Assembly: GCA_965199495.1 (NCBI GenBank)
Contig: CBDASK010000003.1
Span: forward strand, 3,040,001-3,104,000
DNA: 64,000 bases
Direction of reading: 5' to 3'
Origin: Abditibacterium sp.
GTDB taxonomy: Bacteria; Armatimonadota; Abditibacteriia; Abditibacteriales; Abditibacteriaceae
In this document: positions 2,252-63,783 of the stretch, in pieces
Numbering within the stretch: position 1 is the first letter of the stretch
Layout: each line of letters begins with the position of its first letter
Notes under the pieces: generated by a model
What the model was told of the DNA's origin: nothing
What the model saw: the letters and a program-made list of their open reading frames with translations, nothing else
Databases searched by the model: none
Translations under genes and position numbers: made by a program

Positions 2252-2869
2252 ATGGCTTCTTATTCCGACCCTTCCTCGTCCGCCTCGCCTTCGTGGGTGA
2301 GCGGGCCTCGCGCCGAAATTGCCGATGAACGTTGGTCAGGCGTGCAATTGCTTGCGTGCGATGTGGACGGGGTTTTGACCGATGGTAGTCTGGCGTTCGA
2401 TGAAGAGGGCCGTTTGATTCAAACCTTTTATGTGCGCGACGGTTTCGGTCTGGTTGCGGCGCGGCGCGCGGGCATCAAGGTCGCCTGGGTTTCGGGACGC
2501 CCATCCAAAGTCGCGCAAAAACGTTTTGATGAATTGGGCCTCGATCATTGCTTGTTGGGATGCGACGACAAAGCGCGAGCGTTGCGCGAATTACAGGCAG
2601 AACTGGGCATTGAACCCGCCGCTTGCTGCTTCATCGGCGACGATATTCCCGACCTTTCGGCCTTCGCGGTGTGCGGCCTCAATGTCGCCGTGGCTGATGC
2701 CGAGCCGGTTGTCGTAGCGCGCGCCGATTACATCACACGCGCGCGCGGCGGGCGCGGCGCGGTGCGCGAAATCATTGACCTGATGTTGACTTCGCGCGGC
2801 TACTTCGACATGATGGTAGATATGTTCGAGCGCCCCGATTCGCCCGACCCGGACAACTTGCAACGATAA
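2252..2869 (+). CDS. kdsC: 3-deoxy-D-manno-octulosonate 8-phosphate phosphatase (HAD, YrbI family)
   Basis: DVDGVLTDG, RDGFG, IGDDIPDL and GGRGAVREIID motifs; start moved to ATG 2252. Confidence 0.9.
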   Translation: MASYSDPSSSASPSWVSGPRAEIADERWSGVQLLACDVDGVLTDGSLAFDEEGRLIQTFYVRDGFGLVAARRAGIKVAWVSGRPSKVAQKRFDELGLDHCLLGCDDKARALRELQAELGIEPAACCFIGDDIPDLSAFAVCGLNVAVADAEPVVVARADYITRARGGRGAVREIIDLMLTSRGYFDMMVDMFERPDSPDPDNLQR

Positions 2870-2879
2870 AAAGCCCAAA

Positions 2880-2981
2880 ATGAAAAACGAATTTTCGCCG
2901 CTCGATGTCGCGCTCTCGCTGTGGCTGTTGGTCATGTTCGGGATTTTCTTCGGCTTCTCCGGGCCATTGCTGAATTTGTGA
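2880..2981 (+). CDS. Putative 33-aa single-pass membrane protein (below ORF-track cutoff)
   Basis: ATG 2880 to TGA 2981 reads MKNEFSPLDVALSLWLLVMFGIFFGFSGPLLNL; fills the gap between two co-oriented genes. Confidence 0.5.
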   Translation: MKNEFSPLDVALSLWLLVMFGIFFGFSGPLLNL

Positions 2982-3034
2982 TTTTGGTTTGAATTATTCC
3001 GCGAAATCCATCCCAATTCTAAAACCTCTGCCCG

Positions 3035-4978
3035 ATGCCCTATCTCGCCGACGCATTCCTATTCACATTCTTTGCTCTCGCGTTGCTCTCGCTGGGATTG
3101 GGGGCTTTTACGCCACAATGGTCGCTACTCGAATCGCTGATTTTGCCCGCGCTCGCCACGCTGGGCGCGCTGGGGTTGGCCATCTGGATCGTCGGCTCGC
3201 TGGGCGTTTTTCGCGGCGCTCTCTGGGCGGTAATTTTCGTCGTCGGCTGGCTCATCTGGATGATCTGGCGCCGCGATTTAGTTCGTCAAAACGCGCGACG
3301 CATTTTACCGGCGCTGCTCACTTTAAGCGCGACCGAAAAACTGTTGGCGCTTTATCTATTGGCGACGTGGGCGCTGATTTTTGTCTTATCTCTGGCACCG
3401 CCGGAGGGCGCCGATTACGATAGTCTGGTCTATCATCTGGCCGTCCCCGCGCAATACAGCCACGCCGGGCGCATCGAGCAGTTGGCGTTCGATCATCACT
3501 CGTATTTTCCGTTCACGATGGAGATGCTTTACGGCGTCGCGCTACAATTGCGCGGGCCGGTTTTCGCCAAATTATTCCACTGGCTGATGCTGCCGTTGGG
3601 CGCTCTAACTCTCGTTGCATTCGGCCAACGCGCCCAATCGCGCGTCGGCGGATTGTTGGCGGCGTGCCTCTTTACTTCGTTGCCGATGACGCTCACCGAA
3701 GCCTCGACGGCCTATGTAGACCTCGCGTTTGTCGCGTTTTCTGTCGCCGCCGTTTTGTGTTTCGCGGGCGCGCCGACGACCAATCGCACGCACAATCTGT
3801 TGTGGAGCGGCGCGTTTTGCGGGTTCTGTCTGGGCACCAAATATTTCGGTTGGCTCATCTTCGGTTTTCTGGGAGTTTGGCTGCTCGCCGAAACACTCAA
3901 AACTAAACCGCCAGACGGCGCGCGCGGCGTTTGGTTATTCGGCTTGAGCGCGCTCGCCATTGGCGGCGGATGGTATGCGCGCAACTGGATTTGGACGGGC
4001 AATCCGGTTTATCCGTTCGCCTATGGCCTTTTCGGTGGGCGCGGCTGGACGGCGCAAATGGCGACGCTTTACGATCAATCGCAAGCGATTTACGGTTTTG
4101 GCCGCTCGCCATTTGATTTGATTGCGCTGCCGTTTCGCCTCGCCATGACGCCAGTCAACGTCGGCGGTTTTGAAGGTCTGGGCGTGCGCGGTCAACCGCT
4201 GTGGCCTTTAATCCCCGGCCCGGTCGGCACCGCCGATCCGAATTCGCTCACCGGGATTTTTGAAGTGCCCGGCCTGTTTTTAGTCACGTTCCCTGGCCCG
4301 GCGATTTTCGCGTTCGGCTGGCCCGCGCTTCTGGGCCGCGATAAACCGCGCCCGATTTTAATCGCGGCGTCGCTGTTTATTTTTCTGTGGATATTCTGGG
4401 CGCTGACCAGCCAACAGGTGCGCTATCTGTTTCCGGCGTTGGCGCTGTTGGCGGTCGTAGCCGGGTGGGGCATGGCGAAATGGGCGCCCCAATTAACGCT
4501 CGCTCGCTGGATTGGCGCCGCCGCTCTGGCGGCGTGGCTGCTGCTGGCGCCGCTGTTTATCGCGCGCAATGCGAGCGGAATATCGCGCGTTATCAGTGGC
4601 GCGCAAACGCCCGATGATTATCTGACGCGCAGCTTCGCGGGTTACAGCGCGATGCAATGGATCAACCTCAACACGCCCAAAACCGCGCGAGTTGCGGTTT
4701 ACGGCGAGCCGCGCGATTTCTATTTGAACCGCTCTTACTTTTGGGCCGACGACGCGCACAACCAACTAATTGATTATCCGAACATTTCGACTGGAGCGCA
4801 GTTGGCCGCCGCGCTCAAAGCGCAGGGCGCGACCATCGTTTTGGCGAACTTCGCTGCCGCGCGCAACGGCGGCGCCTTTGGCCCGCCCCAACCTTTGTTC
4901 GACGCGATGGTGAGTTCGGACGATGCCACTCTGATTTTCGATAACGAACGCGGTTATCGCGTTTACCAGTTGAAGTAA
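3035..4978 (+). CDS. GT-C fold membrane glycosyltransferase (ArnT/PMT-like)
   Basis: Many TM helices; DYDSLVYHL, YVDL, GTKY, WYARNWIWTGNPVYPF and QVRYLFP motifs. Confidence 0.8.
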   Translation: MPYLADAFLFTFFALALLSLGLGAFTPQWSLLESLILPALATLGALGLAIWIVGSLGVFRGALWAVIFVVGWLIWMIWRRDLVRQNARRILPALLTLSATEKLLALYLLATWALIFVLSLAPPEGADYDSLVYHLAVPAQYSHAGRIEQLAFDHHSYFPFTMEMLYGVALQLRGPVFAKLFHWLMLPLGALTLVAFGQRAQSRVGGLLAACLFTSLPMTLTEASTAYVDLAFVAFSVAAVLCFAGAPTTNRTHNLLWSGAFCGFCLGTKYFGWLIFGFLGVWLLAETLKTKPPDGARGVWLFGLSALAIGGGWYARNWIWTGNPVYPFAYGLFGGRGWTAQMATLYDQSQAIYGFGRSPFDLIALPFRLAMTPVNVGGFEGLGVRGQPLWPLIPGPVGTADPNSLTGIFEVPGLFLVTFPGPAIFAFGWPALLGRDKPRPILIAASLFIFLWIFWALTSQQVRYLFPALALLAVVAGWGMAKWAPQLTLARWIGAAALAAWLLLAPLFIARNASGISRVISGAQTPDDYLTRSFAGYSAMQWINLNTPKTARVAVYGEPRDFYLNRSYFWADDAHNQLIDYPNISTGAQLAAALKAQGATIVLANFAAARNGGAFGPPQPLFDAMVSSDDATLIFDNERGYRVYQLK

Positions 4979-4993
4979 AATTTCTTCGCGCCC

Positions 4994-7950: not shown

Positions 7951-8766
7951 TCACTTTTGCAGCCACCATCCAAAAATAATGGCGCCACCGATTGTCCCAA
8001 CGCACGGAAGCAGCGCCGAAGTCAAACCGAAAATCGAAATTAATCCAGCACAACCCATTGTCGTCCCTATTGCCAAACCAATAAGTGGACTGAGCCGGTA
8101 TTCCTGTTCTGCGGCGACGGGACTACTTTTGAAAAGCGCGCTCCACTGCCACGGACGGTTGGCTCTATCGCGCTTCCAAAGCCAAATCATAAACAGACCA
8201 ATTCCCAGTGCTGTTGGCGGCCCCAAATCGCCCATGTCAAAGGCAGGCCACTGCATGTGCGCGACTGGCTCCATCATCAGCACAAACGCGAACAAATAAG
8301 CCACGATGTTATAAATCGTCCATTGTTTGCCTTGGCGCTGGAAACGAAAAATCCAAAATCCAAAGATCGCCAATATAAGTGCCACATAATCCGAAGGCTT
8401 GCTCAATTGCTCCCACGCAGATTCCGGGAGAGTCACTGCTGCTGTTCCAATTGCCGTAACGGCAACCAATCGCCAACCAAACTTACGCGCGAAATCCCAC
8501 TTCGACAACGGCACGCCTTCGGTTTCCATTTGCCCCGAACTTGCCCACTGCCGACGCAAATCGCGCCCGACTTTATCGGGTTCGCCGAACTCGCGCATCG
8601 AATGCAGCCACGCCGTGGCTGCATCGAAGCTGTCGGCGCGTTTGGCTTCCCACTGCGCGTGTAAATGCGCGCGAACTTCGTCCATAAACTCAGCTTTGCG
8701 CGCGGCGGGCACGTCGCGCAATTGCGCTTCGATGGCGGCCAAATACGATTCGAGATTATTTTCCAT
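7951..8766 (-). CDS. HAAS-domain membrane protein, paralog 1
   Basis: Start ATG 8766 (MENNLESYL) overlaps the padR stop; same HAAS motif as the neighbour. Confidence 0.75.
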   Translation of the reverse strand: MENNLESYLAAIEAQLRDVPAARKAEFMDEVRAHLHAQWEAKRADSFDAATAWLHSMREFGEPDKVGRDLRRQWASSGQMETEGVPLSKWDFARKFGWRLVAVTAIGTAAVTLPESAWEQLSKPSDYVALILAIFGFWIFRFQRQGKQWTIYNIVAYLFAFVLMMEPVAHMQWPAFDMGDLGPPTALGIGLFMIWLWKRDRANRPWQWSALFKSSPVAAEQEYRLSPLIGLAIGTTMGCAGLISIFGLTSALLPCVGTIGGAIIFGWWLQK

Positions 8767-9292: not shown

Positions 9293-10015
9293 ATGAAACT
9301 CAGCGTTTTGATGCCGGTGTGGAACGAGTCCGCCACGCTCGAAGAAATTTTACGGCGCGTGCAAGCGGTAGATTTGGACAAAGAAATTATCATCGTGGAC
9401 AACGTTTCGAGCGACGGCACGCGCGAGATTTTGCAGGCTATGCTCGACAACAGCCACGCCGGGTCAGCCGATAGTTCGGCGCGTATTCGCATCGCGTTTC
9501 AAGAGGAAAATTTGGGCAAAGGCGCCAGCGTGCGGCGCGCGCTCGAATTGGCGCGCGGCGATTGGGTGATCGTGCAAGACGCCGATTTGGAATACGATCC
9601 GCGCGATTATCTGCGCTTGATGAAAGCGGCGCAAAAGCGTAAGTTGGATGTGGTTTTCGGCACGCGACTTAAAGGCGATACGCGGGCGGGGCAACCGCGT
9701 ACTTCGTTTTTTTACGGGCGCGTTGGTTTGTCGGTCTTCTTCCGATTGCTTTACGGTTCCCCGCTTTCGGACGTGGCGACTTGTTACAAACTGCTCAAAC
9801 GCCCGTTCGCCCAGACGCTCGATTTGCAAAGTAGCGGTTTCGACTTGGATTTTGAAATCGCCGCCAAAGTCGCGCGCGCGGCGCGCAAACGAAAAATTCG
9901 CGTCGGAGAAATCCCGATTTCTTATGCGCCGCGCACCGAACTCGAAGGCAAAAAAATCCGTGCCGTCCACGACGGTTGGCGCGCGGCGCGGGCGTTATTG
10001 AAATTTCGTTGGTAG
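9293..10015 (+). CDS. Family 2 glycosyltransferase (DPM-synthase-like)
   Basis: LSVLMPVWNE, SSDGT, GKGAS, QDADLEYDP and DVATCYK motifs. Confidence 0.9.
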   Translation: MKLSVLMPVWNESATLEEILRRVQAVDLDKEIIIVDNVSSDGTREILQAMLDNSHAGSADSSARIRIAFQEENLGKGASVRRALELARGDWVIVQDADLEYDPRDYLRLMKAAQKRKLDVVFGTRLKGDTRAGQPRTSFFYGRVGLSVFFRLLYGSPLSDVATCYKLLKRPFAQTLDLQSSGFDLDFEIAAKVARAARKRKIRVGEIPISYAPRTELEGKKIRAVHDGWRAARALLKFRW

Positions 10016-10190: not shown

Positions 10191-11903
10191 ATGAATCGTC
10201 TCACTTCTCTCGCTCTTTTTGCCGCGCTCGCGGGCGGTTGCGCGCGCTCGGATTTGGGCGAGCGCGCGGCCTCGGAAGTGGTGAAATCTGCCGTCAAAGA
10301 AGAAGCGGGCAAAGCCAAATCGAGTCTGCAGAAGATCGGCAACGTGACAATGAAGGACTCCAAATTTGTCGGTGCCGATGCCAAAGGCAATCCGTTGTGG
10401 GAAGTCGGCGCCAAGTTAGTGGTGACCAAAGACCAGGTGCAGAGCGGCACTCCCAAACGCGCGACGCTGTCCGATGCGACGGTCAAGCTCTATCACGAAG
10501 GCAAACTCGAATCTACTTTTGCGGCGCCGCTCATCGAGTTTTTTAACACCGACAAAGGTCTGCGTTTGTCCATGACCAAAGGTGTTAAAGCCTCGAACGT
10601 GGGCGCGTTGGGCAAAGATGGCGTGCCGATTCAGGTCGCGGCGCCGCGCGGCGATGTGGATGTCGCCAAACGTTTAGTCAGTCTGAGCGGCGGCGCGCGC
10701 GTGGTGCGCGGGCCGATTACCGTGACTGGAAAAACGCTGCGCACCCAAACCGATCTGGCGCGCGCAAATTTGATCGGCGATGTCTTGGCGCAATCTCCGC
10801 AGGGGCAAACCAAAGCGAAGGACGCGATTTTCGCGTGGAAAGCCAACACGCTCGCGGCCAACGGCGTGACGTTTATTCGGCCCGATTTGACACTCACTGG
10901 CGATAAACTCAGCGCCGACACCGCCGCCGAAAAAGGCACCTTAACTGGCAACGTCCGCGCCGTGGCTGTTGGTGCGGGCGTGACTTCGAGCGCGACGGCG
11001 CCGAGCGTGGATTTCGATTGGAAAGCCGACATGATTCGCGCGGCCAACGCGAATTTGTCGCGCGAGGGCGCGCAGATGGAGACGGCGCAGTTGCAAACCG
11101 ATTCCAAACTGAAAGTCGCCGATGCACAGGGCGTGACGATTCGCAAAGATGGCGCGACTTTAAAAGCCGCCAGCGCGCGCGGTTTCGACGGCTTGAAGCA
11201 ATTGACTGGAACCAAAGTCATCATCGTGCGCGACGGCACGACGCTGACGGCGGCGAGCGCCAAAGCCGACAATTGGAGCGCGAGTTCGGGCACAATTACG
11301 GGGAGCGGTGGCGTGACCGCGACCAATGCCGATGGCAAACTCAACGCGCAAAGCGCGGTTTGGAGCGGCGGCAAAGACGGGCAAATCACGGCGTCGGGCG
11401 GCGTCGAAATCGTCTCCAAAGGCACCACGATTCGCGGCGCGCGCGGCACCAGCGACGCGAGCATGAACGTCGCGAATTTGAGCGGCGATGTGCGCGCGAC
11501 GCTCAAAGACGGCTCGACTTTGCGCGCGCCCGTCGTGCGCAAAAGCGGCGATCAAATCGTGGCGAGCGGCGGAACGACAGCGCAGTTCAAGACGCAAGAT
11601 CAATTGCTTACCGTCCAAGCGCCGCGTGTCGAAACGACCGTCGGTGGCCAAACCGCGCGCGCATCGGGCGGCGTGAACTTGAAAAGTTCCAGCGGCGCCA
11701 CAGCCACGGCGCCGACGGCGACGTTTAATCGCGCGACGCAACAAGTCGTGGCGAGCGGCGGGGTGAAATATACCGATCCGAAAATGGGCACGCTCAACGG
11801 CAAAACGCTGCGCGCCAATCTGCGCTTGCAAAGCGCGGTGATGGACAATGGTAGCGCTCAGATTAACAGCGATTTCTTTGGCGATAAAGGTTTGTTTAAT
11901 TAA
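10191..11903 (+). CDS. LptC/LptA (OstA)-like beta-jellyroll repeat lipoprotein
   Basis: Lipobox ALAGG-C; GNPLWEVGAK LptC-like start; many repeats of LSG/ASGGV..G.TL.A. Confidence 0.65.
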   Translation: MNRLTSLALFAALAGGCARSDLGERAASEVVKSAVKEEAGKAKSSLQKIGNVTMKDSKFVGADAKGNPLWEVGAKLVVTKDQVQSGTPKRATLSDATVKLYHEGKLESTFAAPLIEFFNTDKGLRLSMTKGVKASNVGALGKDGVPIQVAAPRGDVDVAKRLVSLSGGARVVRGPITVTGKTLRTQTDLARANLIGDVLAQSPQGQTKAKDAIFAWKANTLAANGVTFIRPDLTLTGDKLSADTAAEKGTLTGNVRAVAVGAGVTSSATAPSVDFDWKADMIRAANANLSREGAQMETAQLQTDSKLKVADAQGVTIRKDGATLKAASARGFDGLKQLTGTKVIIVRDGTTLTAASAKADNWSASSGTITGSGGVTATNADGKLNAQSAVWSGGKDGQITASGGVEIVSKGTTIRGARGTSDASMNVANLSGDVRATLKDGSTLRAPVVRKSGDQIVASGGTTAQFKTQDQLLTVQAPRVETTVGGQTARASGGVNLKSSSGATATAPTATFNRATQQVVASGGVKYTDPKMGTLNGKTLRANLRLQSAVMDNGSAQINSDFFGDKGLFN

Positions 11904-12884: not shown

Positions 12885-12889
12885 TTTTT

Positions 12890-13804: not shown

Positions 13805-14272
13805 ATGTCAAACGCAACGCAATGGGGTTTGCCCGCCGATTTCACGCCCGCGCGCTTTCCGATTCCCGACGAAGCCAAATCCGCCGTTCGTCCTTTGCTG
13901 ACGCCCGGCGATCCGGTCGTTATTTCGCTCGCCAACGACGAAGACGCCCTCGTTTTGGTCGGCACGCCGCAGCGATTGTTGGTCGTCAAACTCAGCGGAC
14001 TATCGGCGGGCGCGGCGGGCGTGGCTGTGCGCGAGTTCCCGTGGGAAGGCATCACGCGCATTGTCGCCACGCCCTTATCGTTTCAACTCAAAATCGCGTT
14101 GCATTTCCGTTCCAGCAACGGGCGCACCGTCGAAGTCGGGCGGCGCGCACAGTTGGGCAAACCGGGCGTCGAGAATTTGGCCGGATTCGATTTAGATAAC
14201 GGCAACACCGTTTTGGCGGCGATAATGCAAATCTGGGAAAGCAAACGCGACGACAATCTGCTCAGCGACTAA
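13805..14272 (+). CDS. Hypothetical protein (possibly PH-like fold)
   Basis: ATG 13805, 14 nt after the upstream stop; typical codon usage; LVGTPQRLLVVK..FPWEGIT pattern. Confidence 0.6.
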   Translation: MSNATQWGLPADFTPARFPIPDEAKSAVRPLLTPGDPVVISLANDEDALVLVGTPQRLLVVKLSGLSAGAAGVAVREFPWEGITRIVATPLSFQLKIALHFRSSNGRTVEVGRRAQLGKPGVENLAGFDLDNGNTVLAAIMQIWESKRDDNLLSD

Positions 14273-43508: not shown

Positions 43509-43545
43509 AGTTTTTGGGGGATTGGAGATTTGGTGGTGAATTTGA

Positions 43546-52898: not shown

Positions 52899-55800
52899 AT
52901 GAACGTTTTTGCTGCTCGCATCGCTCACCTCATTCGTCCCGCCACTTGCGCCCTGTTGGGCGCTGCCCTGATGGCCACTTTGGGCGGCGTGGCTGATGCC
53001 CAGACACCCAGCGCCGGAGTCGCGATCTCCAATCAGGCGAGCGCGAGCTACGAATTGGGCGATGTCATCGTCAACCTGCTTTCCAATCGCGTGCAGGTCA
53101 CCGTCGCGCCCGTCGAAGGGTTGCGCCTCACCGCCGACAACGCCAAACAGGTGCCCATCGGTGCGCCGGTTTCGTTTCCCCATCGCCTGACCAATACCGG
53201 CAACGTCGCGACTTCCTACAACTTCAACGTGAGCAACCAAACCGGCGACGATACCGATCTGTCGGATTTGCGCATTTATGGCGACCTTAACGGCAACGGC
53301 ATCGTGGACGAGGGCGAACCGCGCCTCGACAATGGCGCCGCGCCGGTTGGGTTGGAAGCCGGTCAATCCACCGATTTGTTGGTGACCGGCACCGTGCCCG
53401 TCACTGCCAGCGCCGGGCAAAGCGCGCGCGTCCAGCTCGAAGCCGTGACGCAAAACGCGACGGCGCGCGCGCAAAACGTGGACACAGCCACGGTGGCGCT
53501 GGGCGCCTCGGTCGAAGTGCGCAAAGAAGCCTCGCGCCAGAACGCTTCGCGCGGCGACCAGATTAGCTACGATTTGACCGCGATTTCGCGCGGCGGCGTC
53601 GCGCCCACGCCGACCAATTTAACCGTGGACGGCGCCGCGCGTGCCCTGGTTTTACTGCGCGATAGCGTGCCCGCCAACACGACGTTGGTCAGTTGGACCA
53701 AAACCGGCAACGGCCTGTTGCTCTATCATCGCATCGGCGACGCCGCCAACGCCTACGTCACCGCGCAACCCGATAGCGCCGCTGGCGTTATCACCGATGG
53801 CGTCGCGCTGGGATTGGACAACTTTATTCCCAACTCGACGGTGCGCGCCACGCTCACGGTGCGCGTCAATAACAACGCCAGCGGCAGTTTCGATAACACC
53901 GCCGATGTGATTTATCGCGAGGCGGGCGCCGACCGTACCATCAGCGCGCCGTCGAACACCGTGGGTGTCGCCGTGCCCATCGCGCCGCCGACATTGGCCT
54001 ATTACACGAGCGCGGGTTACACGCGCGAGGCGACGGTGACCGGTTTGAATCGCCCGCTGTTTTTGCAGGGCGACAGCGCCGCCTGTAACGTTGACCCGAC
54101 TGCCGTTGAGCGCGTGACGCTGACGTTGACTTCGACTTTGACCGGCGATTCGATTCGCACGCAGATGATCGAAACCGGCCCCAATACGGGCATTTTTCGC
54201 GTCGAAAATCCGATTCCCACCTCCGACGGCGCCGCCGTGGCTGATGATGGCGTCTTGCAGATTTTGCGCGACGACGTTTTGCAAGCGCGCCTGAGCGGTT
54301 GCGGCACCGCCGACGCCGTCGCGCGCATTTTGGTTGACCCGCTCGGCGTGGTTTACGACGCGCGCACCAACCAACCCGTGAGCGGCGCGCGCGTCACTTT
54401 AATTGACGCCGCGACCGGCCAACCTGCGCGCGTCTTCGATTTTGATGGCGTGACGTCACGTCCATCAACAGTGACAACCGGCGCCGATGGCGTGTTTCAG
54501 TTCCCGCAGGTCGCGCCCGGTCGCTATCGTTTGCAAATCGAGCCGCCCGCCAATTATCTGTTTCCCTCGAAATTGGCGCCCGCCAACCAGCCACCGGGTC
54601 GCACGATTGACGCGTCGGGTTCCTATGGCGGCGAGTTCGCCGTTGACGCCGCGACTGGCGCCGTCGTTTTGGATGTGCCGCTCGATCCGCCGCAGGGCAC
54701 CGGATTGTTCGTGGACAAAATCGCCCGCTCGCGCGACGCCGAAATCGGCGGCACGGTGGATTATCAGGTCACCATTCGCAACGTCGCGGGTGTCGCCGTC
54801 AACAACGTTCAATTATTGGACGGTCTGCCGCGCGGCCTGACCTACGTCGCGGGCAGCGCCCGCCGCCAGAGCGCGAGCGGCGCCAACGGCACGCCCGGCA
54901 TTTTCGCCGCGTTGCCCGATCCGCGCATCGAAAACGTGCGCGCTTTGACCTTTAATATCGGCACATTGGCCAAAGACGAATCGGCAATTATCACCTATCG
55001 CACACTGATCGGCCCCGGCACGCCGACCGGCAAAGTGCGCAATAGCGCGCGCGCCACCGGTGCCACAAACTTTGATTCGTATACATCCAACACGGCCAGC
55101 GCGATTGTCGAGATTCGCGGCGGCGTCTTCACCACGCGCGGCGTTTTGATGGGCCGCGTCTTCGTGGACTCCAATAACAATGGTCGCTTCGACCGCGACG
55201 AATTGGCGGTGCCCGGCGCGCGCATCTTTTTGGAAGATGGCACTTACGCCGTCACCGACGGCGACGGACAATGGACGATTTACGGCGTTTTGCCCCTGAC
55301 GCACGTCGTCAAAATTGACCGCACCACGTTACCAATCGGCGCCACGCTCAAACCGCTCACGGTGAATTACGCGGGCAAAGGCGATTCGGTTTTCGCCGAC
55401 CTGAAAAACAGCGAACTCCAGCGCATCAACTTCGCGCTGAGTAGCACCACCGAGGCTCAAATTGCCGACGTGAAAGCGCGCATCGCCAAGGGTCAAAACG
55501 AGGCGCCCGAAATCACCACGCAACTGCAAAATACGCTCACGACTACGCCCAACACGCAACTCGGCGACACCCGCGCGCAACCCGCGACCGGCGTTGTCGG
55601 CGGCGTGGCTGGCCCGACGAACCAGAATCAGACCTCGCGCACCGTGCAATCGAACGCGCCCGCAGGCATTGACGCGCGCCCGCTTCGCACGGCGGGCGAT
55701 GGCCCGCTCGACGGCCAGTTCGCCCCAGCCACGGCGCCTTCGCTGGAAGCGGGCGCGCGCGAAATCGAAGAGCTTTTGGCGACGCTGCAACCCGGCATCG

Positions 55801-58800
55801 GCATTTTGGGCTACAAAGACGGCGACACTTTGCTGAGCGATCAGATCAACGTGCGCGTCAAGGGCGACGCGGGCACCACGCTGAAACTGACGCTCAACGA
55901 CAAAGCGGTGGACGATGACCGCATCAGCGTGCGTTCGGAAGATAGCAAGCGCGGCGTGCAGGTTCGCGAATATATCGGCCTGAAACTGCGCGCGGGCGAG
56001 AATAATTTGCAACTCAGCCAGATCGATTCGTTTGGCGTGGCGCGCGGCGAAGCGTCGGTGAAGCTCGTTGCCCCCGGTTCGTTGGGCCGCTTGAAATTGA
56101 CGGTGCCAAACGTTGGCGTGCCCGCCGACGGACAGACGGGGACGAAAATTAACGTCGAGTTGGTGGACGACAAAGGCGTGCGCGTCACGGCCCGCACGCC
56201 GATCACGCTCGAAGCCAGCGCGGGCCGTTGGAATGTGCGCGACCTCAACGACACGCAGCCCGGCGTGCAGGTTTTCATCGAAGGCGGGCAGGGCAGCTTT
56301 GAACTGATTCCGCCGTTTGAACCCGGCCAGGCCGTCGTCAAAGTCGCGGCGGGCATTATTTCAGCCGACGCCAAAGTGTCGTTCGTGCCGTATTTGCGCC
56401 CGGTTGTGGCGGCGGGCATTTTCGAGGGCCAATTCGGCTTCAAGGCCAAAGGCGCTTCGCAAATGCCCATCGCGGCTTTCGAGCGCGAATTGCAATCCAT
56501 CACCGGCAACGGCGGCGGACGCGCGGCGGGCTATATTAAGGGCCGCATTCAGGGCAAATATCTGTTGTCAATGCGCTTCGATACGCAGTCAGCCGAAGAC
56601 AACCGGCTATTTCGCGACATTCAGCCCGACGAGTTTTATCCGGTTTATGGCGACAGTTCGACCAAAGGTTTCGACGCGCAGTCCACCGGCAAACTCTACA
56701 TTCGCGTGGACAAAGATCATTCCTACGCGCTCTATGGCGATTTCACGACTTATGCGGCGGACGGATCGGAATCGCTGGGACGCTACGGGCGCGCTTTAAC
56801 CGGCGGTCAAATTCACAGCGAGGACGACAAGTATTCGGCGACGGCGTTTGTTTCGCGCACCAGCGCTTCGCGTATCGTGCAGGAAAAGCGCGCCAATGGC
56901 ACGAGCGGCGTTTACCAACTGGGCGTTTCGGATATTCGCCCGCAATCGGAAATCGTCGAGATTATTGTTCGCGACCGCAACAATCCGGGCCGCGTCATCA
57001 GCGCCACGCAGCAGACGCGTTTCACCGACTACACGCTCGACGGCTTTACTTACGGTCTGCTGTTTCGCCGCCCGATTCCGTCGTTTGACGAAGATGGCAA
57101 TCCGATCTTCATCCGCGTGACCTACGAGCGCGAAACCGGCGGGCCCGACTTCACCGTCTCCGGCGTGGCTGCTCAATATAAAATCGGCAACCGTTTGCAG
57201 GTTGGCGCGGGCGTCGTGCAGGACGACGACCCGACGCGCAAGATGAATATGCGCTCGGTCAACGGCGCGTTGCGTTTGAGCGACGACACGATTTTGGTCG
57301 CCGAATACGCCCAAACCGACACGCCCGAATTCGGTACCGCCGGGGCTTCGCGCTTTGAACTGCGCAAAGACGGCGCGAATTTTCAGGCGCGCGCTTATAC
57401 CGGCACGGCATCGCTCGGCTTCAACAATCCCGAATCGGCCTTGACGCGTGGACGCAGCGAAAGCGGCGTGCAGTTGTCGGCCAAAATCGGCGCCAAAACG
57501 CAGGTCAGCGCCGAAGCGATTCGCACCAAAGACGGCCAGAGCGGCGCCCAAACGCAGGGCGTGCAAGTCGGTTTGGATCACGCGTTTACCAACGATATTC
57601 GCGGCGGCATCGGCATCCGCAACGCCAGTGGCGATGCGTCGGCCAGCTTCGGCGGAACCGGGCAGGACAACTTGAGCTTCACCTCGATTTACGGGCGCTT
57701 GAACGCGCGCGTCGGAGCCAAATCGAACGCTTTCACGCGTTACGAGCAGCAACTGGGCGGCGGCAATCGCTCGCTTTCCCTTGGCGCCGATTATCAGATC
57801 GCACCGCAAACGCGACTCTACGCGATTCACGAATTCTTCGATTCGCCGCTCTCGCTTTACGCTTTGGGCGATACGCAGCGCCGCTACGGCACGCGTCTGG
57901 GCATCGAGACGGCGTATATGCGCGGCGGCACTTTGTTCAGCGAATATCGTCTGGCGGGCGGCGTTGACGGGCGCACCGCGCAGGCGGCGATTGGGCTGCG
58001 CAACCAGTGGAAGTTGGGTCAGGGCATCGGCGTTTCGACCAGTCTGGAGAACACGCGTAATTTGAATGGCGGCATCAATAACGTTGGTTCAACCGCTAAT
58101 TTGGGCGGCGACAATGGCACGGCGGCTTCGATTGGTTTCGAGTCGCTCGGCTCGGACAAATTGAAGTGGACGACGCGTTTGGAAGGTCGCGATGGACAGA
58201 GCAAGACCTTAACAGCCACGGCGGGCGCGGCCTATCAGGCGTCGCGCGATTTGACGATGCTGGGCCGCGCGGCCTACGCCAAATCGAGCGCGGGCGGGTT
58301 CACCGGCACTGGCGGCGTGGCTGCTGTTGGCGGCTTCGACCAGAAGCAGACGCGCGTGCAGTTCGGGCTGGCTTATCGGCCCGTTAAAAGCGACCGTTTT
58401 GTGGCGCTACTCAAATATGAACTGCGCGATGGCGACGATCCGTCGGGCATCGGCGTGCGCTTGCAGCGCCGCCAGAACATCATCAGCGCCGACGCTAACT
58501 ATTTGGTTTCGCAGTCGTTGCAGGCGCGCCTGCACTACGCGTTCAAAAACAGCCGCGACAACACCGATGGCTTGCTGACATCCAGCTCGGCGCACTTGCT
58601 GAGCGGGCGTTTGTCCAAAGACATTACGCGCCGATTGAACCTGTCGCTTTTGGGTTCGACGCTGTGGAACGGCGATTCGCGTCAGGTCGCTTACGGCATC
58701 GAAGCCGGTTACGGTTTGACCGATAATCTGCTGCTCTCGCTCGGTTATAATTTCAGCGAACTGCGCAACCGCGACTTCGCCGACGAGACGCTGGGCAAAG

Positions 58801-62000: not shown

Positions 62001-62529
62001 CCGCGATAGCAACGGTAACGGCGTTTTGGATGGCGGCGACGCGCAGATCACCGGGCCGGTCGCCGTGGCTGCTGGCGTGCCGATCACGATATTCCTGCAA
62101 AACTTCATCCCGACAACCGCCGCCAATGGCGCGCAGGATAAGCTGACGGTGACAGCGAACTTCACGCCAACAACGGGCGCGGTTCAGTCCATCGCGCGCT
62201 CAGACTTGACGACTGTCGCCGCCAATCAAGGTTTGCTGTTGAGCAAAGCCGTGGACAAAACGACCGCCAAAAGCGGCGACGTTCTGGTTTACACCATCAC
62301 CTATCGCAATACGGGCGCCGAGGCTTTGACCAACCTCGTCGTCAAAGACGCGACGCCTTCTTACACAACATTCCAGAGCGCAACCACCGGGCCGCTCCCG
62401 ACTGGTTTAACGGCGCCAACGATCGCCGCGCCGAGCGCCAACGCCAAAGGCGCCGTGACGTGGACGTTCGGCGGCATTTTGAATCCGGGCCAGAGCGGAA
62501 CGGTGACATTTAATGTGAAGGTTCAGTAA
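59050..62529 (+). CDS. Secreted Gly-rich adhesin with DUF11 and SdrD-B-like stalk (putative tip adhesin)
   Basis: GGAG RBS then ATG 59050; signal peptide; GGGGG-rich head; SGTVYLDANRN and SGSVFED domains; C-terminal DUF11. Confidence 0.82.
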   Translation: MNLKRFKQLVARAALGLTLVAASLGNARAARAVCGTPGKDGPFTGGGVVNSYFASAQSASAGDRTVILSSSPRADGAQTGISVGDLLLLWQTQGATINSTNNESYGSGNAANNARGYTSLNGAGNYEFVRVTAVNGGTLTVAGDGAGGGLRFSYSYDPTAIPRQTFQVVRVPQYSSMTLTSALAPVKFDGTTGGGIFVDVAGTVTFSTTTGASVYQTGFRGGFAPINDAVNSNSNSVYPIPNKPRNGAGKGEGIAGRPRFVWNETTDTDNGVEGYPGGDGGRGAPGNAGGGGNAHNSGGGGGSNSGAGGRGGYPWEGQPSQAGTVFDTVANTNGTTRQVPRAWGQGAAALLNGGAAFTDHLFMGGGGGGGDANNATTGVKGGVGGGVIILRAGSFAGATTIDARGDAGDRGVFANAPDGAGGGGAGGTVILVSRNSSSASITVNAQGGAGGNTVNDPIDPGSGANNGTTSHGPGGGGGGGTVIYSGLSVTANLAGGTAGKTNDGGTGSISHGAAGGATGLTAPLTAGQGNGLTDNGDGCAATLTVTKSTTTPSVAAGTNATYQVTIANTGTGSAAGVVVDDALPVPFAYDPASPATIIYTVGASGPATLAGTNNTANGVTTTRFGTAGDSTKTFFVGAGASLTLTFAVKTTGALPAKYDNSATVRFAEPRRTDATILVSPGGKYANGTTVTGSNYNGTLAANTAEDVTIQGSVSGTVYLDANRNATLDSTESGANINNLFVKAVLSGQASAAQAVPVTAATGAFSFSGLAPGNYTLVLDDNATLTDITPALPAGYIGTESPGGTRQITVANQALQNQNFGLFNGAQISGSVFEDGGNGTGPGLGGVKVNLTKADGTIIDTTTTDASGNFAFKVPNSVGAGVLKVVEFNLSGYNSVSGNIGTTGGTYDQPTDIISFPYAAGSTYTGLKFGDSRGITFIGEDAKTGTAGSSVFYPHVFASQTAGNVTFTTAQLPTPANTGWSVVTFRDSNGNGVLDGGDAQITGPVAVAAGVPITIFLQNFIPTTAANGAQDKLTVTANFTPTTGAVQSIARSDLTTVAANQGLLLSKAVDKTTAKSGDVLVYTITYRNTGAEALTNLVVKDATPSYTTFQSATTGPLPTGLTAPTIAAPSANAKGAVTWTFGGILNPGQSGTVTFNVKVQ

Positions 62530-62539
62530 AAGTAGCGCG

Positions 62540-62580
62540 ACAAAAAAGAGCCAGCGAGACTGTTCGCTGGCTCTTTTTGT
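62540..62580. terminator. Bidirectional terminator between convergent genes
   Basis: AAAAAGAGCCAGCGA-N6-TCGCTGGCTCTTTTT. Confidence 0.8.
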
Positions 62581-63783
62581 TTAATTGTTCGAGGCCGACG
62601 CGCCGATGGAAAATATCAGGAACAAACGCAGCAACGCGAAAGCTAATCCCATCATCCAGCCCGCTAAGGCCACGTTGACCAGACGATTATTCTGTTCATC
62701 GAAGTAGCGCCACAGGAAAATGCCGAGCGGAAAACACGAAGCGCAAAAAACGAAAGTGAGGGCCGAAAAAACAAAGCGGTGCGCTAATTCGACGACATCA
62801 ATGGGCGCTTTGGTCGAATGCGGCGTGCGCTGGTTGAACCCGGCATAGCGCGCTATGCCGGGCAAGTGGCCCAGAAACGCGAAGCCGTTAAGACAAACGC
62901 CGATCCAGCACAATCCCGAATATGCCAGCATCCAAAACCCCCAGCCCAACTTTTCAGATGTCGCGTTGGAACGCGAGAAGGAAGGGAATAATCCATAGGT
63001 ATAATCGTTGGCCGAATCAACGAAGTCGCGAAGTATCAAAGTGAGCATCGCCAGCGTCAAAATAGTCGCCGCTCCGCTCGCGAACTTTTGGATGTCGGAG
63101 CGCTCGGCCAAAAATGCGACCACAACTCCAATAAACGGCAGCAGCATCAACACCACAAACGCGGGCGAGTAGACGAACAACGCCATCCCATTAGAGCTGC
63201 CGTAATATATTTTGATAGTCACCGGCAGGAAGGCAGCCACGGCGAGGCTTACAACTGCAAAGGCGCCCAGCACATAGACGGGCAACATCGCGCGCGAATC
63301 GGCCTGTAATCCCAGTGGATGGGTTGGGAGTTGGAACTGAATTTTGGGAAACAAATTCGGTCGCGCGATGTTGGGCAACTCCTCTTTGCGGAGCGCTACA
63401 ACCAAGGCAAAGGCTGCGGAAACGGCCAGCAGAAATTCTATCTGGCTGTTCTCGATGCGAAATGCGCCCCGATTTCCGTTGCTAAAGACTTCAAACGCGC
63501 GGTAGAGACAAGCCATAGCGAAAATTATCGTGATCGCCCAGGCGGCCCGACGAAAAATTTTGTCGTTCACGCAAGCGCCATAAAACATCGCGCCGAGCGC
63601 CGACAAACCCAATCCAATCAAACCGACAAAATACAATGTCTGCAAATTACCGGTCAGCATATCTTGGAAGACGTAACTGAAAAAACCGAGAGATTTCCAC
63701 TCGAAAACTCCCCTTATCAAGGGAAAAGTCAGAGCCACTAACCCAATTATAAACGACAATACCGCACACAATAATCGAACCAT
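62581..63783 (-). CDS. Hypothetical multi-pass membrane protein
   Basis: 400-aa ORF with about 10 hydrophobic segments; more AT-rich than its neighbours. Confidence 0.65.
   Translation of the reverse strand: MVRLLCAVLSFIIGLVALTFPLIRGVFEWKSLGFFSYVFQDMLTGNLQTLYFVGLIGLGLSALGAMFYGACVNDKIFRRAAWAITIIFAMACLYRAFEVFSNGNRGAFRIENSQIEFLLAVSAAFALVVALRKEELPNIARPNLFPKIQFQLPTHPLGLQADSRAMLPVYVLGAFAVVSLAVAAFLPVTIKIYYGSSNGMALFVYSPAFVVLMLLPFIGVVVAFLAERSDIQKFASGAATILTLAMLTLILRDFVDSANDYTYGLFPSFSRSNATSEKLGWGFWMLAYSGLCWIGVCLNGFAFLGHLPGIARYAGFNQRTPHSTKAPIDVVELAHRFVFSALTFVFCASCFPLGIFLWRYFDEQNNRLVNVALAGWMMGLAFALLRLFLIFSIGASASNN

Follow-up and report, generated by a model that had tools for sequence, protein, structure and literature searches.

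The described systems closest to the word reported here are the uptake sequences of the Neisseriaceae (DUS), whose receptor is the minor pilin ComP, those of the Pasteurellaceae (USS), and HIP1 of the cyanobacteria. The DUS is described as an asymmetric word of 10 to 12 nt that occurs in thousands of copies on both strands, lacks replichore bias, takes variant forms in related species, is scarce on foreign DNA, can form close inverted pairs, and is spaced on a scale of ~1 kb, corresponding to the size of conversion fragments, ~1.1 kb (PMC2397512). About half of classical uptake sequences, DUS included, are reported to lie in terminators (bioRxiv 10.1101/2025.10.24.684340). For the USS, the majority of copies are reported to be coding (65% in Haemophilus influenzae), uptake by this species is reported to be unaffected by orientation (PMC1939737), and the word is described as shaping the encoded peptides (PMC2817400). 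HIP1 (GCGATCGC) and the alternate cyanobacterial palindromes are reported at a 15- to 300-fold excess, as conserved both inside and between ORFs, and as replaced by other words in particular lineages (PMC5861425, PMC4390886). HIP1 is now tied to transformation (10.1101/2024.09.10.611283; PMC13756078), which it is reported to boost in a methylation-dependent manner (bioRxiv 10.1101/2024.09.10.611283).

In the 64-kb stretch of Abditibacterium DNA that we analyzed (the window; genome G000), the 8-mer CGTGGCTG occurs 47 times, 28 on the + strand and 19 on the − strand, and both the counts and the positions of the original prediction hold. In 100 dinucleotide-preserving shuffles of the window, the mean is 2.23 and the maximum 7, so the chance value is ~2 rather than the ~4 estimated earlier from a zero-order model. 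An extension to GSCGTGGCTG was correctly recognized in 33 of the 47 copies (0.49 expected), and the inverted pair noted at 8605-8621 is real. On the 4.72-Mb chromosome, there are 3083 copies of CGTGGCTG compared to 234 expected from an order-3 Markov model, giving it the top observed/expected ratio among all chromosomal 8-mers with at least 150 copies. Only 2 of 471 chromosomal 10-kb windows lack a copy, and thus the enrichment is not confined to the window. The full word has 12 nt, CG-V-CGTGGCTG-C, and is asymmetric, G/T-rich, and non-palindromic; ten of its positions are specified, and it is 50- to 180-fold over-represented. Its boundaries are sharp: the 12-mer CGCCGTGGCTGC is present in 690 copies versus 3.9 expected, whereas variants with one mismatch at positions 1, 2, or 4 to 10 number 0 to 26 each. 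Beyond the 12 nt, nothing is conserved around the G000 copies, and no flanking AT-rich segments were seen, which sets the word apart from the USS. These data confirm that the word is hyper-abundant and genome-wide in Abditibacterium, and they support its earlier placement in the density class of DUS, USS, and HIP1. Among the literature matches listed, no description of this word, or of such a word in this group, was found.

The copies in the window are given below, where "full flank" denotes that the CG-V flank is present and "core only" denotes the 8-mer with a flank other than CG-V. As claimed, the word is embedded in coding sequence in several reading frames (46 of 47 copies in ORFs; five of the six strand/frame classes used). 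The gene comEC does lie in the window, as noted earlier, and is included.

2689..2696, +, full flank: sense, AVAD, ORF 2252-2869(+)
3457..3464, −, full flank: antisense, YSHA, ORF 3035-4978(+)
4533..4540, +, full flank: sense, AWL, ORF 3035-4978(+)
8605..8612, −, full flank, left arm of inverted pair 8605-8621: sense, AWL, ORF 7951-8766(-)
8614..8621, +, full flank, right arm of the same pair: antisense, AAT
9451..9458, −, full flank: antisense, NSHA, glycosyltransferase ORF 9239-10015(+)
10961..10968, +, full flank: sense, AVAV, ORF 10191-11903(+)
11701..11708, −, full flank: antisense, TAT, ORF 10191-11903(+)
12730..12737, +, core only: sense, AWL, aldo/keto reductase ORF
14020..14027, +, core only: sense, GVAV, ORF 13805-14272(+)
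15037..15044, −, core only: sole copy outside the ORF set used
19430..19437, −, core only: sense, PVAA, ORF 19257-19805(-)
20551..20558, +, full flank: antisense, TAT, porin ORF 20122-21375(-)
21330..21337, −, core only: sense, AVAA, porin ORF 20122-21375(-)
23969..23976, +, full flank: antisense, AAT, GH26 ORF 22667-24088(-)
24237..24244, −, full flank: antisense, PAT, ORF 24176-24871(+)
25496-28075, +, comEC (Pfam Competence 6.8e-48, Lactamase_B, DUF4131), holding four core copies
25744..25751, +, core only: sense, RVAV, comEC
25873..25880, +, core only: sense, PVAV, comEC
26289..26296, −, full flank: antisense, SAT, comEC
27886..27893, +, full flank: sense, AVAA, comEC
29354..29361, −, full flank: antisense, RSHV, MoxR ATPase ORF
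32204..32211, +, full flank: sense, PWL, DUF58 ORF
35738..35745, −, full flank, inverted neighbor 28 nt off: antisense, PAT, DUF2339 ORF 35617-38793(+)
35766..35773, +, core only: sense, PVAG, DUF2339 ORF 35617-38793(+)
37097..37104, +, core only: sense, AWL, DUF2339 ORF
37199..37206, +, core only: sense, AWL, DUF2339 ORF
37466..37473, +, core only: sense, TWL, DUF2339 ORF
37721..37728, +, core only: sense, AWL, DUF2339 ORF
38937..38944, +, full flank: sense, AVAA, VIT/VWA ORF 38851-41307(+)
41256..41263, +, full flank: sense, AVAA, VIT/VWA ORF 38851-41307(+)
42910..42917, −, core only: sense, RGC, Alpha-E ORF 42558-43616(-)
43002..43009, +, core only: antisense, SAT, Alpha-E ORF 42558-43616(-)
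44192..44199, −, full flank: sense, GVAD, ATP-grasp ORF 43722-45233(-)
47712..47719, +, full flank: antisense, AAT, ORF 46767-47810(-)
49555..49562, −, full flank: antisense, TAT, ORF 49242-49769(+)
52150..52157, −, full flank: antisense, TAT, DUF11 ORF 49890-52538(+)
52421..52428, +, full flank: sense, AVAA, DUF11 ORF 49890-52538(+)
52988..52995, +, full flank: sense, GVAD, giant ORF 52899-59027(+)
53485..53492, −, core only: antisense, TAT, giant ORF 52899-59027(+)
54236..54243, +, full flank: sense, AVAD, giant ORF 52899-59027(+)
55604..55611, +, full flank: sense, GVAG, giant ORF 52899-59027(+)
55726..55733, −, full flank: antisense, PAT, giant ORF 52899-59027(+)
57164..57171, +, full flank: sense, GVAA, giant ORF 52899-59027(+)
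58213..58220, −, full flank: antisense, TAT, giant ORF 52899-59027(+)
58316..58323, +, full flank: sense, GVAA, giant ORF 52899-59027(+)
62064..62071, +, full flank: sense, AVAA, ORF 59050-62529(+)
63234..63241, −, full flank: sense, AVAA, ORF 62581-63783(-)

The original prediction did not extend to the 12-nt limit, the versions and unrelated words of relatives, the origin of sites by point mutation in place, or the same-strand exclusion zone. It did propose that the word lacks the strand polarity of Chi or KOPS and, indeed, no replichore polarity is evident on the chromosome when the GC-skew extremes are taken as borders (522 + and 556 − copies between them, 1003 + and 1002 − outside). The word is scarce on DNA regarded as foreign: its density is near chance on two small contigs (2 and 6 copies versus 1.0 and 2.4 by chance), and low-GC 10-kb windows carry 0.15 to 0.31 copies per kb versus 0.62 to 0.69 in typical windows. 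In these respects, as in its shape, abundance, spacing scale, and close inverted pairs, the word resembles the DUS.

Copies on the same strand are depleted 3- to 10-fold up to ~1.2 kb, whereas copies on opposite strands are not. The observed/expected ratio for same-strand pairs is 0.09 to 0.44 up to 600 nt and reaches ~1 at 1.25 to 1.5 kb, compared to ~1 for opposite-strand pairs. At distances of 36 to 600 nt, the strict word forms 52 direct pairs and 266 inverted ones, where 300 orientation shuffles give 160±8.5 direct pairs with a minimum of 137. This depletion is present both within genes and across gene borders and recurs in the related genome G011, whereas eight other abundant 8-mers give values of 1.20 to 1.67. 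Convergent and divergent pairs behave alike, and the overall CV of the gaps between copies is 0.93. The avoidance of same-strand neighbors within ~1 kb suggests a strand-reading machine, most likely in DNA uptake and recombination. Such exclusion is not described for the DUS in the sources cited above, and, given the reported indifference of H. influenzae uptake to orientation (PMC1939737), strand-specific spacing is not a known property of uptake sequences. A palindrome such as HIP1, unlike the asymmetric G000 word, cannot reveal it.

Among 27 Abditibacteriaceae genomes, the core is enriched only in G000, G011, and G004, which form one clade. G004 carries the flank version GACGTGGCTGGT (1671 copies; control count 1), of which ~40% are paired as inverted doublets at a distance of 33 nt; these have a GTAG-like head and are mostly located outside ORFs. 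G001 has an unrelated 13-mer (2035 copies), and G032 to G035 have a 10-nt palindrome (1834 to 3166 copies), for which the exclusion zone in G035 is ~450 nt. A HIP-like palindrome, WTCGAGTACTCGAW, occurs in the family at ~1 per kb, and the sister genus bears a true palindrome of the HIP1 kind. Some close relatives have no such word. The variant forms recall the DUS; however, the Abditibacterium word belongs to a different phylum, is unrelated in sequence, and is swapped for an unrelated word within one genus, which means that specificity turns over faster than for known DUS variants.

Comparing G000 with G011, we find identity at 118 of 173 and at 118 of 152 sites versus 31% of in-phase flanking 8-mers, and the retention of word sites is double that of flanking controls. 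The majority of sites that are not shared can be aligned to relatives free of gaps, with 1 to 5 mismatches (gaps at 4 to 20 of the 100 to 173 sites per comparison). Non-shared sites have an amino-acid identity of 0.70 for G011 (controls, 0.88) and of 0.735 for G004 (controls, 0.83). As read from these alignments, word sites are born in place by point mutation, evidently at the expense of codon preference and, in places, of the encoded amino acid. Where G000 is highly identical to G011 or G004, windows show no enrichment of the word, and thus no trace of recent exchange.

We give roughly even chances to the proposal that the word is a self tag akin to DUS, USS, and HIP1 that is read on a single strand and owes its spread to drive linked to transformation; on the comparisons above, this lineage-specific 12-nt word would belong to the same class. 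A putative sequence-specific factor would read the word during uptake and recombination of same-species DNA, such that word-bearing donor molecules are preferentially taken up or integrated and, therefore, word-creating point mutations are over-transmitted against codon and sometimes amino-acid choice. The molecular-drive model of the USS, with one effective site per fragment, may be applicable. Accumulation would end at ~1 copy per 3 kb on each strand. One copy per molecule would suffice: a second same-strand copy within ~1.2 kb would bring no gain, whereas an opposite-strand copy would be independent. From this combination we infer a reader that sees one strand, either single-stranded DNA after translocation or DNA under a directional tracking enzyme. 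G000 encodes a type IV pilus operon and a competence set (ComEC, ComEA, DprA, secretins, PilB/T/C/D, and prepilins). Counting against a self tag, these genes are generic, with ComEC and the pilus operon equally present in congeners that have no word. The presence of comEC in the window, offered earlier as a hint to function, therefore carries no weight, as the word is genome-wide and the competence genes are ordinary. No reader protein was found in G000, and the ComP_DUS profile has no match there, although the control was also matched nowhere. Among the matches listed from the Abditibacterium literature, no experiment showing that members of this phylum are competent or take up DNA in a biased way was found. 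Also counting against a self tag, 2803 of the 3083 copies (91%) are inside ORFs, a coding majority as for the USS, and genes rather than terminators hold 82 of the 99 close inverted pairs, unlike the DUS. The strand-specific spacing, the swift turnover of words within the genus, and the lack of word enrichment in high-identity windows likewise weigh against it.

If the word arose simply from how amino acids, dipeptides, or codons are used (AVA/AWL/TAT peptides), the prevalence of alanine-rich peptides at its coding sites (AAT, 517; AVAA, 255) would be expected. However, when codons are shuffled synonymously, with each protein and the codon counts of each gene unchanged, 242±15 ORF copies are left versus 2602 observed. 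The excess therefore lies at the DNA level, as had been argued, and persists where the original prediction allowed that it might vanish. The word also occupies all six strand/frame classes genome-wide, has an intergenic density (0.37 per kb) several times chance, and is absent from relatives with similar proteins, and this explanation, refuted by the shuffle, retains a negligible probability. The claim that the word uses uncommon codons is correct for GCT (10% of Ala), GCA (6%), and ACA (9% of Thr) but not for GTG (35%), GCC (33%), and ACG (44%), which are common. It is also very improbable that the word is a small mobile repeat, remnant or active, such as a REP/REPIN mobilized by a RAYT transposase or a MITE. 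The G004 doublets do resemble REPINs in their head and location, and G000 encodes Y1 transposases. For G000, this origin is largely refuted by single, mostly intragenic copies without common flanks past 12 nt, by the mostly gap-free alignments, and by a genuine REP family of different sequence (294 copies, 269 outside ORFs).

Possible but doubtful is a Chi-like intracellular signal, whereby a helicase-nuclease tracking one strand from a break would recognize the word in one orientation and switch to recombination, the word being kept by selection for break repair with no role in uptake. Like the Chi of RecBCD/AddAB, the word is asymmetric, G/T-rich, over-represented in the core genome, and perhaps read on one strand, and the exclusion zone would suit such a reader if one site per stretch is enough. 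The G004 version contains GCTGGTGT, which we take to differ by one letter from Escherichia coli Chi, and a 1421-aa protein with PD-(D/E)XK nuclease and SF1 helicase is restricted, in the genus, to the three core-word genomes. As these form a single clade, shared ancestry confounds that pattern; moreover, the protein is also present in word-less G016 and G017, is absent from G001 and G032 to G035, which bear other words, and looks broken in G011. Known Chi sites have 5 to 8 nt, a few-fold excess, and replichore skew, whereas this word is much longer, far more enriched, and unskewed. RecC was not found in G000 and only two PDDEXK_1 matches are present, so no canonical RecBCD or AddAB is seen. 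A Chi-like effect is also invoked for HIP1 (10.1101/2024.09.10.611283). We regard as rather unlikely the model proposed for HIP1, in which a methyltransferase marks the word and methylation-dependent short-patch repair turns near-matches into matches, with no uptake role. Elhai reportedly put forward such a repair model for highly iterated palindromes. The palindrome in the same family and the rapid swapping of words, reminiscent of methyltransferase specificity turnover, would fit it, and G000 has genes for two C5 methyltransferases and one D12-class enzyme. However, methyltransferases seldom have asymmetric sites of 12 nt, local repair patches leave the ~1.2-kb exclusion unexplained, and the only Vsr match is partial and under the cut-off (24.5 bits). 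Unlike the iterated palindromes tied to cognate methyltransferases in Elhai's account (PMC4390886), the G000 word has no cognate enzyme identified: the adjacent C5/D12 pair is not tied to it, and its D12 member was found in neither G011 nor G004. Xu et al. argue that HIP1 is maintained by selection, not biased repair (PMC5861425). It is quite unlikely, in turn, that selection keeps regularly spaced sites on each strand for binding by a chromosome-organizing protein, either nucleoid-associated or acting as an oriented barrier or loader. Even spacing, strong same-strand exclusion, and conservation between G000 and G011 would suit such sites, and a role in nucleoid structure has been proposed for HIP1 (PMC5861425). 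Selection would nonetheless be weak on ~3000 individually dispensable sites, yet near-miss variants are almost absent; convergent and divergent pairs do not differ, close relatives do without any such word, and amino-acid changes are tolerated for site creation.

Within the window, the four same-strand copies without flank in the DUF2339 ORF (37097-37728), which encode AWL or TWL, are probably driven by protein sequence. The copy at 29354..29361 looks conserved in place in two relatives, whose ComEC proteins are 91% and 77% identical, as a near-identical copy is present in each at the same distance downstream of comEC.

The word GSCGTGGCTG, which the original prediction described as iterated on both strands of the window, is indeed present at the numbers claimed. 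Its 8-mer core, CGTGGCTG, occurs 47 times (28 + and 19 −), with every position originally listed recovered exactly, and dinucleotide-preserving shuffles of the window contain a mean of 2.23 copies (maximum 7 in 100 shuffles). Extension to GSCGTGGCTG is seen for 33 of the 47 copies, where 0.49 would be expected, and 32 of the 47, as counted from the printed sequence contexts, are preceded by the full flank CG-V. The use of several reading frames was likewise borne out, as 46 of the copies lie in ORFs and five of the six strand/frame classes are occupied, and comEC does reside within the window, at positions 25496-28075.

The enrichment also extends well past the window. The source genome (G000) is assembled as 4.81 Mb in three contigs, with the window at G000:C3:3040001-3104000, and its chromosome (contig C3; 4.72 Mb, 55.7% GC) carries 3083 copies of CGTGGCTG (1525 + and 1558 −), or 0.65 per kb, and only 2 of 471 10-kb windows are without a copy. 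Relative to the 234 copies expected from an order-3 Markov model, this is a 13-fold excess, which ranks top among 8-mers with at least 150 copies. Under the same model, the 10-mer GCCGTGGCTG is found 1131 times versus 22.5 expected, and the 12-mer CGCCGTGGCTGC, the commonest 12-mer of the entire genome, 690 times versus 3.9 expected (~180-fold). The commonest 10-mer of the genome is CGCCGTGGCT (1374 copies), and words derived from the motif top the rankings of maximal-order Markov models at k = 6, 7, and 8.

A protein-preserving shuffle had been named in the original prediction as one means of its refutation. With ORFs called by our own heuristics and a minimum length of 200 codons, 2787 ORFs cover 78% of the chromosome and contain 2602 copies. 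Permutation of synonymous codons within each gene, which preserves every protein and the per-gene codon counts, leaves 242±15 copies (maximum 279 in 20 runs), and a codon-order shuffle leaves 174±12. Thus, the excess survives this shuffle, and there is next to no chance that the word is an artefact of coding.

Alignment of all 3083 chromosomal copies limits the information to positions −3 to +9, with a consensus of C (75%), G (82%), V, the 8-mer, C (58%), and T (49%) and no signal farther out. When the consensus 12-mer (690 copies) is compared with its one-mismatch neighbors, substitutions at positions 1, 2, and 4-10 are represented by 0-26 copies each. Position 3 tolerates C (690), G (357), and A (276) and disfavors T (27), and positions 11-12 are less strict. 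The sharpness of this table defines the G000 word as CG-V-CGTGGCTG-C, a non-palindromic sequence in which about ten positions are specified.

Most copies reside in genes. When ORFs are called more broadly (3433 in number, 84% coverage), they take in 2803 copies out of 3083 (91%), at 0.71 per kb; outside them the density falls to 0.37 per kb, with similar values in tandem, divergent, and convergent spacers. All six strand/frame classes are occupied on the chromosome, unequally: the sense reading xxC GTG GCT Gxx accounts for 1105 copies and the antisense reading GCA GCC ACG for 771, and the commonest encoded peptides are AAT (517), AVAA (255), DVAA (152), and AWL (148). The proposal that the word employs otherwise uncommon codons holds for GCT and GCA (10% and 6% of alanine codons), but not for GTG, GCC, and ACG, which are common. 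Because 82 of 99 close inverted pairs are entirely intragenic, these pairs are not mainly terminators. One local cluster in the window (37097-37728, +), in a gene for a DUF2339 membrane protein, consists of four same-strand bare 8-mers that lack the CG-V flank and all encode AWL or TWL; these look like by-products of the protein's own repeats and not like genuine word copies.

As originally proposed, the word lacks the strand polarity of Chi or KOPS. KOPS and architecture-imparting sequences have a strong polarity that switches at the terminus, of which the word shows no sign. In each 200-250-kb bin, the two strands carry nearly the same number of copies, with 522 + and 556 − copies between the extremes of cumulative GC skew and 1003 + and 1002 − copies outside them. 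GC skew is very weak throughout the 4.72 Mb (no 250-kb bin exceeds 0.015), as is gene-strand bias, and so the origin and terminus are not confidently placeable from skew. On the two smaller contigs, there are 2 copies versus 1.0 expected from composition (24.7 kb) and 6 versus 2.4 (64.6 kb). Where the GC content of a chromosomal 10-kb window is below 52%, the density is 0.15-0.31 copies per kb, compared with 0.62-0.69 in typical windows, and the largest gaps between copies (up to 18.5 kb) are grouped in low-GC stretches at 1.12-1.22, 1.35, and 2.76 Mb.

The chief new result of this analysis is a strand-specific exclusion zone, which emerges when all copy pairs are counted by distance and relative orientation.

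Observed/expected ratios for direct (same-strand) pairs of word copies
35 nt or less: 0.09
36-99 nt: 0.14
100-399 nt: 0.29-0.30
400-599 nt: 0.40-0.44
600-799 nt: 0.65
800-1249 nt: ~0.8
1250-1499 nt: 0.94
more than 1500 nt: ~1

Opposite-strand pairs remain at a ratio of ~1 at all distances above 35 nt, and at 35 nt or less they are enriched 2- to 2.7-fold (83 versus 35 expected). For the strict word CG[ACG]CGTGGCTG (2112 copies), 52 direct and 266 inverted pairs are found at 36-600 nt, where a Poisson expectation gives 267 of each and 160±8.5 direct pairs remain after the orientation labels are shuffled (minimum 137 in 300 shuffles). Exclusion is slight among the 971 flankless copies (36 direct versus 52 inverted). 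The related genome G011 yields 9 direct and 42 inverted pairs at 36-599 nt, versus 36 expected for each, whereas eight other abundant non-palindromic 8-mers of G000 exhibit mild clustering (direct observed/expected 1.20-1.67). The fraction of direct pairs is low both within genes (0.26) and across gene borders (0.28-0.43), opposite-strand genes included, which establishes that exclusion is a property of the DNA and not of transcripts or proteins. Together, these counts show that word copies compete solely with copies on the same strand, over ~1.2 kb. Pair statistics can resolve the strand because the word is asymmetric, which palindromic words do not permit. We found no description of same-strand exclusion for the uptake sequences of Neisseriaceae (DUS) or Pasteurellaceae (USS) in the extracts of the literature examined.

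Two relatives that share the core permit the history of individual sites to be traced, from alignments to G000 that cover 227 kb in G011 (85.0% identity) and 254 kb in G004 (80.2%). At orthologous places, 118 of 173 G000 sites are identical in G011 and 118 of 152 G011 sites are identical in G000, versus 31% of in-phase flanking control 8-mers. The corresponding values with G004 are 42 of 173 and 42 of 100, versus 19% of controls. Sites on alignment gaps number 4-20 per comparison, and non-shared sites are mostly gap-free and differ at 1-5 letters, a pattern that shows copies to be gained and lost in place via point mutation, not insertion. Amino-acid identity is 0.96 (G011) and 0.91 (G004) at shared sites. 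At non-shared sites it is 0.70 versus 0.88 for controls (G011) and 0.735 versus 0.83 (G004), and therefore gain or loss of a copy often alters the protein. Windows of 200 nt with at least 95% identity to G000 (13 of 1068 for G011 and 14 of 1155 for G004) are not richer in the word, and these high-identity windows give no trace of recent exchange between G000 and either relative.

Among 27 genomes of the family Abditibacteriaceae, the 8-mer is enriched in three (3091 copies in G000, 2676 in G011, and 3503 in G004), at about 10 times the reversed-word control. The remaining 24 are near the control level, many of them below it, and the highest reach ~1.3-1.6 times the control (G036, G016, G038, and G018). 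Some of the relatives carry words of their own.

Hyper-abundant words among Abditibacteriaceae genomes
G000 and G011: CG-V-CGTGGCTG-C; 0.65 per kb, and 0.57 per kb in a 398-kb sample of G011
G004: T[AG]GGACGTGGCTGGTGTC; 1671 copies of the 12-mer GACGTGGCTGGT (control 1), which has 37 copies in G000 and 33 in G011
G001, same genus (records L082-L101): CTTCATTTTTTGTGGAA; 2035 copies of the 13-mer (control 0)
G032-G035, four of six sister-genus genomes: palindrome WTCGAGTACTCGAW; 1834-3166 copies of the central 10-mer (controls 0-2)

Relatives were sampled at 100-400 kb. In G035 (records L102-L121), 404 of 451 AGTACT hexamers fall inside GAGTACTC, and the palindrome has an exclusion zone of ~450 nt (observed/expected 0.11-0.22 at 36-299 nt). 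Stop-free frames make up 95% of the G001 sample, so that ORF coverage carries no information on the coding or intergenic placement of its word. Of 172 flank-version copies in 400 kb sampled from G004, 118 are arranged as inverted doublets, most of which lie outside ORFs, with a typical spacing of 33 nt; the doublets have a GTAG-like head and resemble REPINs, whereas single copies lie mostly within ORFs. Direct and inverted pairs are both depleted at 300-1200 nt in this genome, many of whose units are doublets that contain both orientations. No hyper-abundant dispersed word was seen in 100-kb samples each of G012, G010, and G002, and the sole repeat in 100 kb of G006 (L029-L033), a ~27-nt unit with 41 copies, is probably a CRISPR array. 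For G003, G005, G007, G008, and G009, the counts cover the known words only. Thus, there are at least four words among the 27 genomes, three of them within a single genus, and words differ, are unrelated, or are absent from one genome to another. A hyper-abundant word is therefore a recurrent, patchy trait of this family whose identity changes fast. Separately, in more distant genomes, the surroundings of comEC homologues contain local groups of short repeats, inverted or tandem (L016:731-1396, L005:1383-1512, and L015:17295-17353); these span a few hundred bases and, as seen from the loci alone, are not genome-wide words.

G000 encodes ComEC, a canonical ComEA with SLBB and HHH_3 domains, DprA, several secretins, PilB/PilT-type ATPases, and 48 prepilin-type proteins. 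Several loci on its chromosome bear on transformation or were considered as readers of the word.

Chromosomal loci of G000 considered in relation to the word, with a neighboring gene
G000:C3:861065-872591: type IV pilus operon with PilB, a 177-aa ORF, PilT, PilC, PilD, and four large prepilins
G000:C3:4111365-4115630 (−): nuclease-helicase of 1421 aa, with N-terminal PD-(D/E)XK and C-terminal SF1 helicase (AAA_11/AAA_12)
G000:C3:4115908-4117038 (−): bacterial type IB topoisomerase, adjoining the nuclease-helicase
G000:C3:4273367-4275940 (−): C5 cytosine methyltransferase of 857 aa, with an intein (Hint_2, LAGLIDADG_3, Intein_splicing)
G000:C3:4272516-4273403 (−): D12-class N6-adenine methyltransferase, adjoining the C5 enzyme

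Judged by its genes, this machinery should permit transformation, and it does not separate word-bearing from word-less genomes, since ComEC is widespread in the family and five congeners without the word (G012, G010, G009, G002, and G006) retain the pilus operon. All four of the unusually large operon prepilins (308, 618, 316, and 403 aa) are present in these five, and they were rejected as the receptor; the fastest-evolving of them (618 aa) has 50% identity between the word-sharing G000 and G011. The 177-aa ORF between pilB and pilT is without a Pfam family and evolves fast, with 90% identity in G011, 61% in G004, and 26-39% in other congeners. Dedicated receptors include ComP in Neisseriaceae, and ComN is predicted to serve in Pasteurellaceae. 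The ComP_DUS profile (PF16732) has no match in G000, and control genomes likewise gave none.

Among candidate readers of a Chi-like site, RecC (PF04257) has no match in G000 and neither of the only two PDDEXK_1 matches, one of them in the nuclease-helicase, is in an AddAB-like protein, so that no RecBCD or AddAB was seen in a search that covered these two profiles. Within the genus, the nuclease-helicase occurs only in G000, G004, and G011, and in G011 it is apparently broken (one TGA, with the first 707 residues unmatched). It was set aside as a reader, being present in the word-less G016 and G017 and not found in G001 or G032-G035, which have other words. As the three core-word genomes are one clade, presence/absence correlations weigh little, and the protein is a lead only. 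Neither G011 nor G004 yielded the D12 methyltransferase, which is sporadic across the family, and so the methyltransferase pair is not tied to the word. The Vsr profile gave one partial match (24.5 bits), below the cut-off.

The G000 word resembles words of the DUS, USS, and cyanobacterial HIP1 type. Like DUS and USS, it is short, is present in thousands of copies in both orientations without replichore bias, has variant forms among related taxa (G000/G011 versus G004), and coexists with genes for natural transformation, although these are non-discriminating. Its excess and the conservation of its sites are HIP1-like; unlike HIP1 it is non-palindromic, and the G032-G035 word is palindromic. 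HIP1-type words have cognate DNA methyltransferases, and the one methyltransferase pair of G000 that was compared with G011 and G004 is not common to them. About half of the copies and most inverted pairs of DUS and USS are in terminators, whereas the G000 word, judged by ORF position, is far more intragenic. Uptake sequences are defined by the preference of competent cells for DNA that bears the word, and no report of such a preference was seen in the extracts of the Abditibacterium literature searched. With the terminator association also absent, and the ComP_DUS profile silent in G000 and control genomes alike, we do not assign the word to the uptake-sequence family. We found no description of this word, or of any such word in Abditibacteriota, in the extracts of the literature searched; a search with the word gave unrelated matches.

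The excess of the word, its sharpness, the protein-costly origin of copies in place, their conservation, the flank versions, and the near-chance extrachromosomal density require a sequence-specific force that acts on DNA. The exclusion zone adds that this force saturates, with one copy per ~1.2 kb per strand being enough, and that opposite-strand copies are no substitute. This behavior fits a process whose substrates are kilobase-scale molecules or tracts and whose reading is confined to one strand.

By analogy, a transformation-linked drive with strand-specific reading could be this process, a reading that we favor and whose prospects we hold to be about evenly balanced. It is favored because, to our knowledge, no established mechanism other than biased uptake plus recombination gives rise to such words. 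Also in its favor, according to extracts of the published reports, the spacing between DUS agrees with conversion-fragment length (PMC2397512) and HIP1 raises natural transformation (10.1101/2024.09.10.611283); HIP1 was recently proposed as the cyanobacterial counterpart of uptake sequences (PMC13756078). Points against such a drive are the intragenic placement, the lack of any recent-exchange trace, and the finding, in extracts of the H. influenzae report (PMC1939737), that orientation was without effect on uptake.

A Chi-like repair signal could be read by the nuclease-helicase, whose restriction within the genus to the three core-word genomes is in accord with such a role. However, the word, unlike Chi, has no skew with replication direction, RecC was not detected, and in the rest of the family the nuclease-helicase and the words do not go together, which makes this explanation rather unlikely. 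That methylation and repair drive the word is unlikely, since the C5/D12 methyltransferase pair is not common to G011 or G004, the Vsr match is below the cut-off, and a local repair bias does not fit one-strand exclusion over ~1.2 kb. We consider it quite improbable that the word is an architectural binding site. A mobile repeat would spread by insertion, but copies arise in place via point mutation, and this explanation has very little chance of being correct.

Extending the transformation-linked drive to the family, it is conceivable, if doubtful, that Abditibacteriaceae possess a general system for tagging self-DNA, with a specificity that is quickly replaced and a reader that acts on a single DNA strand. 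The reader's substrate would be, for example, the single strand that has entered past ComEC, as opposed to the duplex present at the cell surface. If so, the ~1.2-kb exclusion zone would be a direct genomic readout of the length of the integrated strand, and uptake-sequence-like drive would be widespread across phyla and not peculiar to two proteobacterial families. In extracts of a recent preprint, Neisseriaceae and Pasteurellaceae are the only families credited with uptake sequences (bioRxiv 10.1101/2025.10.24.684340). Should transformation prove to be involved, recombination tract length would be measurable from a single genome, and the family would offer a route to a new kind of DNA receptor. 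The asymmetric word also imposes a mechanistic constraint, namely competition over ~1.2 kb between same-strand copies only. Abditibacteriota, which has a cultured representative, is added as a new phylum with a clean example of such a word, and sister species with the same core and different flanks, a different word, or none constitute a natural experiment in word origin and replacement.

The word also differs from REP/REPIN elements in that its G000 copies are 91% in ORFs and in the great majority single, whereas the G004 doublets are REP/REPIN-like in being extragenic, hairpin-forming, and GTAG-headed. A separate REP/REPIN family is present on the G000 chromosome (e.g., C3:83229, 161577, and 288497), with a sequence of approximately CGTAGAGACaCCGAyTTrTCGyGTCTAAAACGT. 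Its head, GTAGAGAC, has 294 copies, of which 269 are outside ORFs of at least 200 aa, and 79 inverted doublets are spaced 86-88 nt apart. G000 also has eight Y1_Tnp (RAYT-like) matches.
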